A stretch of 6,331 nt of DNA from a virus. Numbering within the stretch: the stretch's first letter is position 1; each line of letters opens with the position of its first letter. This document shows positions 2,780 to 6,331 of the stretch, one piece after another. The DNA is taken from positions 1 to 6,331 of the IMG/VR virus record IMGVR_UViG_3300008807_000711; one strand, given 5' to 3'. A model generated the notes under the pieces. The model made no database searches, was not told the origin of the DNA, and saw only the letters and a list, made by a program, of their open reading frames with translations. The position numbers and the translations under genes are program-made.

Positions 2780-2992
2780 TCAGCCGCGCCGCGATTGTTC
2801 GCGCGCGTCGGCTTCTTCTTCAAGCATCAGCACCCACCGGTAACCCTCTGGCGCTTCGGGTCGGCTGAATGGTGATGGCCCGCCGTTCTTTTCTTCCTTG
2901 TCGGCAAAGAACAGCAGATAGGCCGCTTGAATCAGGCCCATGCCGGACAGCGCCAGCAGCGCGTAATAGGTGAAGTAAGGCAGTTGCTTCAT
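2780..2992 (-). CDS. Small membrane protein, unknown function (70 aa, N-terminal TM helix, acidic C-terminus)
   Basis: MKQLPYFTYYALLALSGMGLIQAAYLLFFADKEEKNGG.... Codon usage is strongly G/C-ending (many CTG, GCG, GGC), consistent with real coding. It lies downstream of the repressor on the same strand. No clear Shine-Dalgarno. Confidence 0.55.
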   Translation of the reverse strand: MKQLPYFTYYALLALSGMGLIQAAYLLFFADKEEKNGGPSPFSRPEAPEGYRWVLMLEEEADAREQSRRG

Positions 2993-3016
2993 GCGCCGGA
3001 AGGTAGCACATGCACT

Positions 3017-3535
3017 TCACTGAAAGACAACGGGGACCCGGACCGGAGACCTTGTGTCGTAGGTTTGGGGCGGGGGTATGGGGCCGCAGGGCACCATGGA
3101 GGACCGTTGTGCAACCCGTACCCCATGAAAAAGGCCCCTTAAATCGGGGCCTTCTTCATAATATTTATACATCGTATCTAGCCACCGCACTATGTCTGGC
3201 ACTCGCTCACAGGTGGCTGAATAGATCTCCTGCGCGCTTACTCCAGCGGAAGCGATCACCCCGCCAGTCGCTACCAAGAACTTTCCCAGCACTCGCGCTA
3301 GCTGGTCTCCCTTCTCTGTCCCTTCGTGGCGCTCGATATGCGCTCTAACCAGCGTTTGTATCGGGTCAAGGCCAGCAATGGCCGCAAGTCTCGCTTGATC
3401 TTCAGGCGGGCAAGGCTTTGCGCCGCTTTTCCACATCGAAACCATAGATGGCGGAATGCCTAGCGCTTTGCCAAGCGCTGACACAGTTCCGGTCTTTTGT
3501 AAAGCCCGGTCGATTAGCTCGGGTATTTGGCTCAT
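3017..3535 (-). CDS. HTH transcriptional regulator, Cro/CI-type phage repressor
   Basis: Starting at ATG 3535: MSQIPELIDRALQKTGTVSALGKALGIPPSMVSMWKSGAKPCPPEDQARLAAIAGLDP. This is the classic helix-turn-helix pattern G(T/S)xxxLAxxLGxxxxxVSxWxxG with a following P and a second helix. It is divergent from the Rep operon across an operator-like array. AAGGT lies 8 nt upstream of the ATG. I preferred 3535 over the track start at 3556 because 3556 sits inside the first operator copy. The last 35 or so codons lie beyond an internal hairpin and may be a fortuitous extension. Confidence 0.8.
   Translation of the reverse strand: MSQIPELIDRALQKTGTVSALGKALGIPPSMVSMWKSGAKPCPPEDQARLAAIAGLDPIQTLVRAHIERHEGTEKGDQLARVLGKFLVATGGVIASAGVSAQEIYSATCERVPDIVRWLDTMYKYYEEGPDLRGLFHGVRVAQRSSMVPCGPIPPPQTYDTRSPVRVPVVFQ
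3067..3091 (+). other. Canonical G-quadruplex motif on the plus strand (GGGG c GGGGG tat GGGG ccgca GGG)
   Basis: Four G-tracts of at least 3 nt with loops of 1, 3 and 5 nt, read directly. It is on the strand sharing the sense of the structural genes, which is the packaged ssDNA strand in known inoviruses. Function unknown. Confidence 0.4.
3125..3159. terminator. Strong GC-rich hairpin, candidate bidirectional intrinsic terminator or ssDNA structural signal
   Basis: atgaaAaaggcccc-ttaaatc-ggggccttCttcat: an 8-bp perfect stem (3131-3138 / 3146-3153), a 7-nt loop, and 5 more bp after one mismatch. On the minus strand the stem is followed by TTTTTCAT, on the plus strand by CTTCTTCATAATATTTAT. 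It lies inside the 3-prime part of the repressor ORF. Confidence 0.5.
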
Positions 3536-3540
3536 GTTGC

Positions 3541-3601
3541 TACCTTTTTGGTACAAACGCTACCAAGTTGGTAATACCTATTTGGTATGACCTTTTTGGT
3601 A
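3541..3601. promoter_or_regulatory. Array of four 13-bp palindromic TACC-N5-GGTA sites (operators or origin iterons) in the divergent repressor/Rep control region
   Basis: TACCTTTTTGGTA 3541-3553, TACCAAGTTGGTA 3561-3573 (perfect palindrome), TACCTATTTGGTA 3575-3587, GACCTTTTTGGTA 3589-3601. Spacings are 20, 14 and 14 nt. All four share TTGGTA. The array lies between the divergent start codons at 3535 (minus) and 3587/3623 (plus). A possible sigma70-like pair is TTGGTA 3548-3553 and TAATAC 3572-3577 (18-nt spacer), which is speculative. Confidence 0.6.
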
Positions 3602-3895
3602 ACGACCGAACTTTACACCGCTATGGCTTCGCCTGTCACCACCTACACCATCGACTGCCCTCCGGGCATGCTCCACGCCCGTAAGACGCGCAAGCGCTTC
3701 ACCAGCGTGTCTGCCTTTGATGGCTATATCGGTGAACTGCGCCGCGTCGGTCGTGTGGTCGATTTCGTTTCGCCTACACATGCCATCCTGGCTCCGCTCG
3801 ACCTCCCTTGTCAGTCGGGGGTGCTGTTCATGTTCGCTCAGGCAGCGCCCACGGTGGGCGGCAAGCGAAGCGCCGCCGCCGGGGGTGTTGCATGA
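3587..3895 (+). CDS. Hypothetical protein, first gene of the plus-strand operon, translationally coupled to Rep (102 aa; alternative start ATG 3623)
   Basis: G/C-ending codon bias typical of the coding genes here (ACC, GAC, TGC, GGC, CTC, CGC...). Its stop TGA 3893-3895 overlaps the Rep ATG 3892-3894 (ATGA). The ATG at 3587 lies inside operator copies 3/4 and has no Shine-Dalgarno. No recognisable motif. Confidence 0.5.
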   Translation: MTFLVTTELYTAMASPVTTYTIDCPPGMLHARKTRKRFTSVSAFDGYIGELRRVGRVVDFVSPTHAILAPLDLPCQSGVLFMFAQAAPTVGGKRSAAAGGVA

Positions 3896-4863
3896 GCGAT
3901 TTCATGGCCCCCCGTCCTGTAACACGGGGGGAAAGTCCGAAGGACCAGCAGGTCGCAAAAATCGACTGGCTGAACTGCACATTTGCAGAACCTGCAATGT
4001 CTGTCGAAGGCTTTGTGGCCTTGCTGGGGCGCATGCTGGGCCGTCCAGTCTCTGGCATCGCTGATCGCGGCATGCTCGGTTTTGATAGCTCCGTGAAGCT
4101 CTTTGCGCGCCATGGCTCCCTGACCAGTCCCATCGGCTGCATTGCCTTTGGCGGTGAATCACAGCGCGGTCGCTGGCTGTTCCAGTTGACCGGCGGCGGC
4201 TGTCAATTCGTGCGCGATTGGGCTGGCCTTCGTGACCTCCTCGAAAGCCTCGATGCAAAGCTAACCCGCGTCGATTTGGCTGTTGATTTTCTCGAAGGGG
4301 AACACACTGTCGAGGAGGCCGTTACCTTGTATCAAGCGGGCGGCTTTCAGCTTGCTGGGCGTTCACCTTCAAGCCGCATTGACGGTGATTGGATTGACGG
4401 CCAGCAGGGCCGTACGCTGTACATCGGCAAAGCCCAAAACGGCAAGATGCTTCGCGTCTACGAAAAGGGCCGCCAGCTTGGCGACCCCGATAGCGAATGG
4501 ACCCGCTTTGAAGTCCAGATAGGCAGCAGGGACCGCGTTATCCCTTTCGACGTTCTCACGGACCGAGACGCCTTTTTCGCTGGCTGCTATCCCGCCTTGG
4601 CTTCCTTCATTGATGTAGCTGCACAGGCTATCCCAACGCTTACCAAGGGCGGCGAAGTCACGCTGGCTCATCTCGTCTATCACGCGAAGCGCTGTTACGG
4701 CAAGTTGTTTGGGACTTTGCTGGAACAGACCAACGCAACCAACGCCGATCTGGTCGAGGAAGTCCGCATTGTCGGTATCCCGCGCCGGGTCAATCTTTCC
4801 AGTCTGGCGGCTGGCGTCACTTGGGCCGACGTTCAGGCCCAGCACCAAAGGGTATCGCTATGA
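3892..4863 (+). CDS. Rolling-circle replication initiation protein, Rep_trans / RstA-like (gene II analogue)
   Basis: Motifs LTRVDLAVDF, TLYIGKAQNGKMLRVYEKGRQLG and WTRFEVQIGSRD match my recollection of the Rep_trans family pattern (RxDxAxD ... Y.G......R.Y.K ... R.E.Q). I chose the start at 3892 (MSDFMAPRP...) because of ATGA coupling to the upstream ORF. The 28 codons upstream from the track start at 3808 (GTG, Arg-rich) overlap that ORF. Confidence 0.9.
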   Translation: MSDFMAPRPVTRGESPKDQQVAKIDWLNCTFAEPAMSVEGFVALLGRMLGRPVSGIADRGMLGFDSSVKLFARHGSLTSPIGCIAFGGESQRGRWLFQLTGGGCQFVRDWAGLRDLLESLDAKLTRVDLAVDFLEGEHTVEEAVTLYQAGGFQLAGRSPSSRIDGDWIDGQQGRTLYIGKAQNGKMLRVYEKGRQLGDPDSEWTRFEVQIGSRDRVIPFDVLTDRDAFFAGCYPALASFIDVAAQAIPTLTKGGEVTLAHLVYHAKRCYGKLFGTLLEQTNATNADLVEEVRIVGIPRRVNLSSLAAGVTWADVQAQHQRVSL

Positions 4864-5165
4864 GCAAAATGCAAATTGTGGGTTTCGAGGGTTCTTCTGG
4901 CGTTGGCAAGACCAGCGGCAAGGCTTACGCAATGGGCCAGATTCACACTCTGGCAACACTGGCCGAACCGTTCAGCGAGAACGGCATTTCCAAGGGCCAG
5001 ATGGGCACCACCTACCGCTGCCCTCTCCCTTTGGTCGAGAAGATCAAGCATCTCCAGCCGCCCTTTGCTGCTGACGTCGATGTTCGGCCCGTCATGCGTT
5101 TTGGCAAGCGCGAGGACGAAGTTTTCGACATCCTGCCTGTCACTACGGCCAAAGCTGCTGCGTGA
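4860..5165 (+). CDS. Putative ssDNA-binding protein (gene V analogue), 101 aa
   Basis: Position directly after Rep, with an ATGA overlap (ATG 4860-4862 / TGA 4861-4863). AAGGG lies 9 nt upstream. Small, soluble and Gly/Lys-containing: MSKMQIVGFEGSSGVGKTSGKAYAMGQIH.... The assignment rests on synteny and size only. Confidence 0.65.
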   Translation: MSKMQIVGFEGSSGVGKTSGKAYAMGQIHTLATLAEPFSENGISKGQMGTTYRCPLPLVEKIKHLQPPFAADVDVRPVMRFGKREDEVFDILPVTTAKAAA

Positions 5166-5577: not shown

Positions 5578-5835
5578 ATGAACGTGATCGAAAAAACCCG
5601 CGCTGTTGCATCGCAAACCATGGATTGGGCTAAGTCCAAGACTGCCACTGTTGTCGCTATCGGTACCGCTGGCGCCGCTGCATTTCAGCCTGCTCATGCC
5701 GCCGCAATCGACGTTGCCGCCGTGACCACCGATATCGCCGCCCAGGCTGCCCCTGTCGCCGCTATCGGCGCAGCAGTGCTCCTGCTGTACGTGGGCATCA
5801 AGGCATTTAAGTGGGTGCGCAAGGCTCTGTCCTAA
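5578..5835 (+). CDS. Major coat protein precursor (pVIII-like), 85 aa, predicted 44-aa mature peptide
   Basis: GAGGAA Shine-Dalgarno 7 nt upstream of ATG 5578. The leader ends ...AAAFQPAHA / AAIDV. The mature peptide AAIDVAAVTTDIAAQAAPVAAIGAAVLLLYVGIKAFKWVRKALS has an acidic N-terminus, a hydrophobic core and a basic C-terminus (K, K, R, K), the signature of inovirus major coat proteins. Confidence 0.85.
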   Translation: MNVIEKTRAVASQTMDWAKSKTATVVAIGTAGAAAFQPAHAAAIDVAAVTTDIAAQAAPVAAIGAAVLLLYVGIKAFKWVRKALS

Positions 5836-5977: not shown

Positions 5978-6331
5978 TTTGCGCCCTTGTGCTTGCTTCC
6001 GTCGCTTCCTTGGCGTTTGCCGATGGCGGGCCATTTCCTGCCACTCCGGGCGCCTGGGATTCGTCCGTCTGCAATCCTGGCAACTACCCTGGCACCTCTG
6101 GCGGTGAGGGCGTAACTAAAGCCTGGGTCTGTAAGGCCAGCACGAATGGCAGTTCACGAAGCTGTGGCTGGTCGTATTCGTCTGCAGACTACGGCCCTGA
6201 TTACTACTTCGCGGGCCAGTGCTCGCAGTTCAAGAGCGCGGACTCGTGCCCAGCTGGTGCTACTGCTGGCACTGCCAGTGACGGCTCCAGTACTTGTACC
6301 TGTTCTGCTGGCCTTCGCCCGTATAACGGGC
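5956..6331 (+). CDS. N-terminal part of the pIII-like adsorption/minor coat protein (runs off the window end and continues at position 3 after circularisation)
   Basis: ATG at 5956 gives MVHLYRLICALVLASVASLAFA/DGG, a classic Sec signal peptide (basic n-region, hydrophobic core, AFA cleavage motif). The frame stays open to the window end. 6235 (=3+6232) is in phase with 5956, so it joins the 3..1169 frame. The joined ORF is 1446 nt, 481 aa. It is absent from the supplied ORF track because it has no in-window stop. Confidence 0.8.
   Translation, partial: MVHLYRLICALVLASVASLAFADGGPFPATPGAWDSSVCNPGNYPGTSGGEGVTKAWVCKASTNGSSRSCGWSYSSADYGPDYYFAGQCSQFKSADSCPAGATAGTASDGSSTCTCSAGLRPYNG
6233..6331. repeat. 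Terminal direct repeat, right copy (identical to 1-99)
   Basis: Same as the left copy. Offset 6232 nt. Confidence 0.97.

Follow-up and report, generated by a model that had tools for sequence, protein, structure and literature searches.

Aca-type proteins are small helix-turn-helix (HTH) proteins that repress their own promoter via inverted repeats. The operators of phage 434, for which indirect readout has been described, have the form ACAA-N6-TTGT, and in P2 and 186 the promoters stand face-to-face. RstR, the repressor of CTXphi, gives long footprints as a dimer of dimers. It represses the rstA promoter through the allele-specific ig-2 region (PMC11509585). In Pf4, Pf4r binds the pf4r/xisF4 overlap region (PMC7379572, PMC8402870); transcription of the repressor gene starts beyond the start codon of the opposing gene, and the two 5' UTRs overlap (PMC7379572). 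Here, we describe four short palindromic sites packed between the start of an HTH gene and that of the replication operon in an inovirus genome. From a comparison of this locus with its relatives, we consider it probable (about 0.85) that the sites are operators of the phage's own Cro/CI-type HTH repressor (3535..3017, minus strand).

The window, by which we mean the whole stretch of DNA analyzed (6,331 nucleotides), is a circularly closed inovirus assembly. Its positions 1-99 recur exactly as 6233-6331, and this 99-nt terminal redundancy therefore defines a complete circular genome of 6232 nt. The ORF for the adsorption protein spans the junction. The other genes referred to below are as follows:

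1173-1472: DUF2523 (g6-like) protein
1597-2778: Zot
3017..3535, minus strand: repressor gene, HTH protein of 172 amino acids (aa; PHROG 638)
3623..3895, plus strand: orfX, the first rightward ORF (90 aa), whose stop overlaps the Rep start
3892-4863, plus strand: Rep, a Rep_trans/RstA-type rolling-circle initiator (Pfam PF02486, E=7.8e-26; PHROG 453)
4860-5165: RstB-like gene (PHROG 929 'RstB', E=5.6e-7)
5578-5835: coat B protein

A prophage of Acidovorax delafieldii DSM 64 encodes Zot and DUF2523 (g6-like) proteins with 81-86% identity to those of the window, and on this similarity the host is probably Acidovorax-like, in the Comamonadaceae. A whole-genome near-identity search of GenBank phages returned no match, and the only repressor-like matches in GenBank were the distant Xanthomonas Xf409/Xf109. 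Among named phages, Ralstonia phage PE226 has the closest Rep (39%). No tRNA genes were found in the window, and its sole Rfam match, asX2, is far below threshold (21 bits vs a gathering score of 70; E=0.96).

The four sites lie between the repressor start codon and orfX:

3541..3553: putative operator A, TACCTTTTTGGTA, with an equivalent first site in all relatives
3561..3573: putative operator B, TACCAAGTTGGTA, a perfect palindrome
3575..3587: putative operator C, TACCTATTTGGTA, 1 bp from B
3589..3601: putative operator D, GACCTTTTTGGTA, GACC-N5-GGTA, with one mismatch

A motif search of the window places the 13-bp sites at 3541, 3561, 3575 and 3589, exactly where a preliminary description of this DNA had put them, and recovers the perfect palindrome that it reported among them (TACCAAGTTGGTA at 3561). 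The same description gave all four sites the form TACC-N5-GGTA. This is exact for three of the four (A, B and C) but not for D, which begins with GACC (GACCTTTTTGGTA); the nearest relative, L034, has T at that position and thus a fourth perfect site. Nor are the sites evenly phased, as had been proposed, since their starts are 20, 14 and 14 bp apart (gaps of 7, 1 and 1 bp). Allowing up to one mismatch (<=1), TACC-N5-GGTA matches the window 5 times against 0.86 expected, a count reached in 0 of 200 shuffles, and 61 bp hold four of these five matches. Most sites have a T-run at their center, always on the same strand, which may reflect indirect readout as in 434, or descent by duplication. We also observed a 15-nt inverted repeat (3498-3512 / 3603-3617; 87% complementary) that flanks the repressor gene start and the entire array and does not look conserved in L037.

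Site A is 5 nt from the repressor ATG (3535). It had been described as abutting the ribosome-binding region of the repressor gene; the position is correct, but the left half of the site overlaps the likely Shine-Dalgarno sequence (the reverse complement of 3541-3547 reads AAAGGTA on the minus strand). On the other side of the array, the ATG at 3587, previously taken as the rightward start, exists only because of the G3589 substitution in site D. It is absent from L034 (TATTACC), L035 and L037, and the conserved start, which is also the one that gene finders call in the relatives, is at 3623; its 90-aa product is likewise conserved. The gap between the start codons is therefore 87 bp (3536-3622), of which the array occupies 61.

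The repressor has an N-terminal Cro/CI-type HTH domain. It matches PHROG 638 ('transcriptional regulator', E=1.8e-16), and its best PDB profile match is Aca7 (E=1e-5), ahead of Xfaso-1 Cro (4e-3). The Pfam families HTH_3, HTH_31 and YdaS were also matched, all below their curated cutoffs. No Pfam match to a Peptidase_S24 autocleavage domain was obtained, and the PHROG and PDB searches gave no RstR-named match. An AF2 model built from 43 homologues is confident over aa 1-90 (mean pLDDT >85 for aa 1-80), with predicted helices at 4-15, 18-25, 29-37, 44-53, 58-69 and 74-89. With the N-terminal domain of this model, Foldseek retrieved local matches to Xfaso-1 Cro, P22 c2, 434 Cro and SinR with probabilities of 0.97-1.0, albeit with weak E-values; Aca7 superimposes with an rmsd of 0.9 A over 53 columns. 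The codons for the presumed DNA-reading part of the fold are located as follows:

3425..3484, minus strand: repressor HTH helices 2 and 3 (aa 18-37; recognition helix PSMVSMWKS)

Beyond the HTH domain, aa 86-121 are hydrophobic, rich in small residues and modeled with low confidence. The repressor family shares a conserved HEGTEKGD motif followed by a hydrophobic Gly/Ala/Ser-rich stretch, FLVATGGVIASAGVSA (aa 86-107; window 3215-3280). To judge from the model, aa 86-107 could be a membrane or oligomerization helix. One structural neighbor of the repressor is YmfM, which according to the PDB is a putative membrane protein that binds DNA.

The window's repressor is longer than those of its relatives (172 aa vs 121-143 aa), and the family core is about 121 aa. 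The 172-aa length arises from a 35-bp deletion at the 3' end of the gene in the window, which shifts the frame so that the ORF reads through a hairpin and a conserved element; its minus-strand tail (3017-3172) crosses the terminator-like hairpin GGCCCCttaaatcGGGGCC (3134-3152). In L034, L035 and L037, the repressor is 143 aa long and stops at a TAA within the hairpin loop. The extra tail of the 172-aa form is probably not functional protein. We considered whether the 143- and 172-aa C-termini distinguish integrated from free forms of the phage and rejected this, since L034, L035 and L037 are homologous to the window on both sides and the C-terminal difference is therefore the 35-bp deletion in the window.

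The region at the 3' end of the repressor gene has further features of its own. A dif-like site, GATACGA-TGTATA(G)-...GTTAAAT, occurs at the 3' end of the repressor ORF in all relatives (window about 3150-3180; L034, L035, L037, L001-L004, L022, L039, L040, L042). L001, L003, L004 and L042 have a perfect central region and a perfect XerD arm (TGTATATTATGTTAAAT), and in these four the site encloses the stop codon of the repressor gene. The window has lost the GTTAAAT arm through its 35-bp deletion and may be incapable of XerCD-mediated integration. Inovirus contigs and Acidovorax prophages that are otherwise diverse (L007/L015, L008, L010-L014, L016) share, at 85-97% identity, a GC-rich non-coding element found at 3033-3125 in the window. 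The one G-quadruplex motif in the genome, GGGGCGGGGGTATGGGGCCGCAGGG (3067-3091), falls within this element on the plus (coding) strand, the strand that inoviruses normally package. The weak asX2 match mentioned above also belongs to this element. A possible hairpin in the element, in which GGGGTATGGG pairs with CCCGTACCCC, shows little covariation. The element is a candidate origin or packaging signal and occupies the position of CTXphi Ig-1.

To relate the sites to the proteins around them, we gathered repressor relatives from IMG/VR, from JGI/NCBI metagenomes and from Logan assemblies and read the region between the repressor and the opposing gene in each. Every relative that we examined has an analogous array of dyad-symmetric sites. 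Position B is the most symmetric site in these arrays and defines their specificity. Relatives with near-identical repressors, in which absence of the motif would have spoken against the preliminary description, retain it: L034, whose repressor is identical to the window's over aa 1-123, has four exact TACC-N5-GGTA sites, as do L040/41, and L039 has three, all exact. Three of the four sites in L022 are exact, and the fourth reads TACC...GGTC. The HTH regions (aa 1-40) of L040/41 and L022 are 85-88% identical to the window's, and their rightward flank and first rightward gene are unrelated to those of the window. Even so, L034, L040/41 and L022 have the same 7/1/1-bp gaps. Among the sites of the window, L022 and L040, half-site positions differ in 4 of 96 cases and central positions in 20 of 60 (Fisher p=1.4e-6).

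The converse comparison concerns close relatives of the whole phage. L037 shares 84% nucleotide identity with the window over 3 kb, and its Rep and orfX are 95% and 91% identical. Its repressor is 91% identical over aa 41-121 but only 45% over aa 1-40, and its sites read TTTCC-N5-GGAAA or GGTAA. In L035, an N-terminal Rep fragment is 90% identical to the window's, repressor aa 1-40 are 52% identical, and the sites are GTTAC-N7-GTAAC. Searches for TACC-N5-GGTA found none in either L037 or L035. L042, by contrast, has an HTH 95% identical to that of L037 and identical TTTCC...GGAAA sites, together with a Rep that is only 25% identical; L003 has the recognition helix (PPHITLWKK) and half-site of L037 on yet another Rep and a third backbone. 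That the sites co-vary with the HTH and not with Rep argues that they belong to the repressor, and we regard the earlier proposal of operators for the divergent HTH protein as supported by this comparison.

Identity to L037 and L035 delimits the segment that varies:

3420..3588, no strand assigned: variable immunity cassette (HTH codons plus operators A-C), marked by a drop in identity to L037 and L035

Across 3420-3579, identity to these two relatives is 0.33-0.75 per 40-nt block, and in the flanking blocks it is mostly 0.85-1.0. Over operators A-C, it is about 0.40-0.45. For L037, the values are 0.40-0.55 in 3420-3499 and 3540-3579 and 0.70 in the intervening block. In L035, L037 and L042, which have other specificities, site D and 20 bp to its right are conserved as ACCTTTTAGGTAAC, and the cassette boundary therefore lies between C and D. 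The last site of the three-site relatives is likewise TACC-like, regardless of the specificity of the other two. Rather than a cassette-specific operator, site D may thus be a weaker or hybrid site common to these phages, or it may belong to the promoter region.

Within the cassette, a change in one half of the dyad is matched in the other (TACC/GGTA, TTCC/GGAA, TAAC/GTTA and TTAC/GTAA across classes). Complementarity is retained in 97% of cells, and 5 cells are changed on both sides, a number that 0 of 500 shuffles reached. The residues that vary between specificity classes fall in helices 2-3 (for example, PSMVSMWKS in the window and PPHITLWKK in L037), and an identical helix goes with an identical half-site in unrelated backbones. 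We distinguish five classes by recognition helix and half-site:

Class 1: helix P(S/A/Q)MVSMW, half-site GGTA
Class 2: helix PPHITLWKK, half-site GGAAA
Class 3: helix PPNITVWKK, half-site GTTAA
Class 4: helix PPNITLWKK, half-site AGTAAA
Class 5: helix ASHVTMWKT, half-site GTGTAAC

A separate scan of IMG/VR for two adjacent sites (TACC-N5-GGTA-N-TACC-N5-GGTA) yielded 5 contigs, which we set aside as chance or unrelated matches because they encode no relatives of the window's proteins. An unrelated viral contig that the motif scan picked up (L020, IMG/VR contig 3300026382_000005) has dense CATACC-N5/6-GTATGG-like repeats at 13700-13900, which may be another operator or iteron cluster.

The arrangement of promoters around the array was predicted as follows:

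3610..3639, minus strand: predicted sigma-70-like repressor promoter (-35 GTGACA at 3639-3634, 18-nt spacer, -10 TAAAGT at 3615-3610)
3548..3577, plus strand: weak candidate rightward promoter (TTGGTA, 18 nt, TGG-TAATAC), read from the sequence

A consensus scan of 2950-3950 found only one sigma-70-like promoter, which points towards the repressor from beyond site D. The sole promoter found in each of L037, L040 and L022 has the equivalent position and orientation (0.2-0.4 expected per region). In L022 and L040, the flank that holds it has no homology to that of the window, so that two unrelated flank types are covered. The repressor mRNA is predicted to start near 3603, with a leader of about 68 nt. 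With the leftward promoter beyond site D, all four operators would lie in this leader, D at about +2 to +14 and A on the Shine-Dalgarno sequence. No rightward promoter was found by the consensus scan (2950-3950), and a hand search gave weak candidates only. Our best guess among these is TTGGTA(3548)-18-TGGTAATAC, although TTGGTA-18-TAATAC is not conserved in the three-site relatives. We place the orfX-Rep promoter over the array because 3536-3622 is the only space available to it, and this is our one reason for doing so. The two promoters are thus probably face-to-face and not back-to-back.

Some observations on the surrounding sequence belong here. In the other flank type (L001-L004, L022, L024, L039), a palindrome, CAAATCTGATTTG, directly precedes the rightward start codon and is kept whatever the specificity of the repressor; it may be a second regulatory site. 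In the same flank type, the -35 (ATGACA) of the predicted repressor promoter overlaps the rightward start codon. LexA-box-like matches (CTGT-N8-ACAG, <=1 mismatch) number 3 in the window against 2.3 expected, with none in 3536-3622. The nearest of them (3633-3648) falls within orfX, 11 nt beyond the start codon, where it overlaps the predicted -35.

We propose the following mechanism for the repressor and its operators. One repressor dimer would bind each 13-bp site and recognize its outer tetranucleotides, TACC and GGTA, in consecutive major grooves (9 bp center to center); the T-rich central 5 bp would not be contacted base by base. Bound repressor would occlude the orfX-Rep promoter that overlaps the array. 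Occupancy of the array would shut off Rep and, with it, rolling-circle replication and virion production, which would provide maintenance and superinfection immunity. At higher levels, the repressor would also throttle its own synthesis, a form of negative autoregulation. The HTH codons and sites A-C would form a mosaic immunity cassette, passed from phage to phage and giving rise to new specificities. At a center-to-center spacing of 14 bp, neighboring dimers would be about 120 degrees apart round the helix, a geometry for cooperative binding that we count against the operator reading.

The array could have a second role at the RNA level, all four palindromes being transcribed into the stably folding leader of the repressor mRNA. 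One 61-nt sequence would then set the dosage of repressor twice over, with bound operators acting as a transcriptional roadblock on DNA and the leader providing translational or stability control. In a related scenario, dimers on the almost adjoining sites (14-bp pitch) would assemble into a short helical filament, held together by the conserved HEGTEKGD motif and the hydrophobic C-terminal region, unlike the pairwise cooperativity of the lambda type. We consider such additions to operator function rather unlikely.

A lambda-type bistable switch, the geometry put forward in the preliminary description, is distinctly unlikely. It would require a Cro-like rightward regulator that competes with the repressor for the four sites with the opposite order of affinity. 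Several adjacent operators between oppositely oriented genes would suit such a switch, and in Pf4 the rightward-encoded XisF4 and Pf4r do repress each other (PMC7379572). The first rightward ORF here, orfX, has neither a Pfam nor a PHROG match. Its predicted fold is beta-beta-alpha-beta-beta, and a structural search with this model gave no HTH-like match, although the low confidence of the model (pLDDT 65) leaves some doubt. Moreover, phages with the same operators (the window compared with L022 and L040) have different first rightward genes. The leftward promoter predicted beyond site D would make the promoters face-to-face, and no S24 domain was found in the repressor; the proposed geometry is therefore not supported. 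We also tried orfX as an analogue of Cro or Xis, and neither its sequence nor its fold supports this. The gene was found in close relatives only (9 clusters), which share an invariant YTIDCPPGMLHARKTRKRF core and differ in the length of their N-terminal extensions.

The palindromes might instead work as hairpins, whether in single-stranded DNA or in the repressor mRNA leader, sequestering the ribosome-binding site or setting mRNA stability, and not, or not only, as duplex operators. As DNA, the 87-nt intergenic strand folds at -12.4 kcal/mol (z=-3.4 vs shuffles). For the predicted leader RNA (3603->3521), the folding energy is -25.4 kcal/mol (z=-4.6), and the Shine-Dalgarno sequence falls within the site-A hairpin; half-site co-variation preserves complementarity. 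Long structured 5' UTRs are described as regulatory in another filamentous phage, SW1 (PMC4762005). However, clustered palindromes give fold stability automatically, and single stems here are only 4 bp. Copies within one genome have the same arms, which change in concert with the HTH, and independent hairpins would not require this. In L002, L003 and L004, the first site combines two different half-sites and is unable to pair. A hairpin role is not needed to explain the data, and we hold it to be very unlikely.

Iterons are frequent at replication origins, and the repeated sites adjoin the Rep operon. They could accordingly be iterons of a plus-strand origin, recognized by a Rep that nicks nearby, as the preliminary description had allowed. 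The relatives contradict this alternative, which we regard as highly improbable. L037 has a Rep that is 95% identical and no such site, and the same applies to L035 with its 90% identical N-terminal fragment; L037 and L042 have common sites and Reps that are 25% identical. In CTXphi, RstA, which belongs to the same Rep family, nicks Ig-1 beyond rstR and not ig-2 (PMC8265649), and in the window the corresponding position is occupied by the strongly conserved non-coding element at 3033-3125. Because of this analogy, we place the replication origin more probably in the conserved non-coding stretch 3033-3165. Finally, chance or neutral tandem duplication of a functionless 14-bp unit, suggested by the period of 14 in B, C and D, is hardly credible, as architecture and half-sites are kept while centers drift, and co-evolution with the HTH has run in parallel in several lineages.

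Reading the sites as operators of the repressor gives a role to the one large non-coding gap beside the replication genes of this uncultured inovirus of Comamonadaceae type. It indicates that cassette-style immunity exchange, as in CTXphi and lambdoid phages, operates also in environmental filamentous phages. The module is of a type already known, and it reveals no new mechanism. Mildly new are the very tight packing of the operators, the location of all of them in the predicted repressor leader and the natural series of co-evolved helices and half-sites. These natural variants are a compact resource on how a Cro-type recognition helix reads DNA: five half-site classes differ by 1-2 bp and are matched to 2-5 residue changes in one helix. 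The set could also be used for orthogonal repressor/operator pairs.

Among known systems, Aca-type (Aca7) and YdaS/Cro-like regulators resemble the repressor itself, Aca7 being its best PDB sequence match. Unlike Aca7, it stands in an inovirus replication module and has the added HEGTEKGD motif and hydrophobic C-terminal region. The lambdoid OR regions (lambda, 434, P22) share the Cro/CI-fold HTH and the three to four tandem pseudo-palindromic operators. In lambdoid phages, too, immunity regions are swapped as cassettes, and the outer bases of operators are conserved while the centers vary. The window differs from lambdoid OR in having no Cro partner or S24 domain, in its probably face-to-face promoters, in its 14-bp center-to-center spacing (about 20-24 bp in OR) and in carrying all operators in what is predicted to be the repressor's own leader. 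The layout of facing promoters that follows from the predicted promoter at 3639-3610 is the same as in Pf4/Pf5. There, however, Pf4r is a P2 C-type repressor acting on non-palindromic direct repeats (PMC8402870), whereas the window has a Cro/CI-like protein and palindromic sites; the Pf4 partner gene encodes an excisionase-type regulator, a fold that the model of orfX does not show. CTXphi RS2 is the closest in function and organization, with a repressor opposite an initiator of the Rep_trans/RstA family, followed by an RstB-like gene. Unlike in CTXphi, the operators of the window are short, clear 13-bp palindromes packed 1 bp apart (B-C, C-D), an extra small ORF (orfX) precedes Rep, and LexA-box-like matches in the window are no commoner than chance. 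As with Ig-1 of CTXphi, the probable origin/att region is on the far side of the repressor gene (PMC8265649). Furthermore, as in CTXphi, the repressor and the intergenic region vary together in an allele-specific manner while the replication genes are conserved (PMC11509585).
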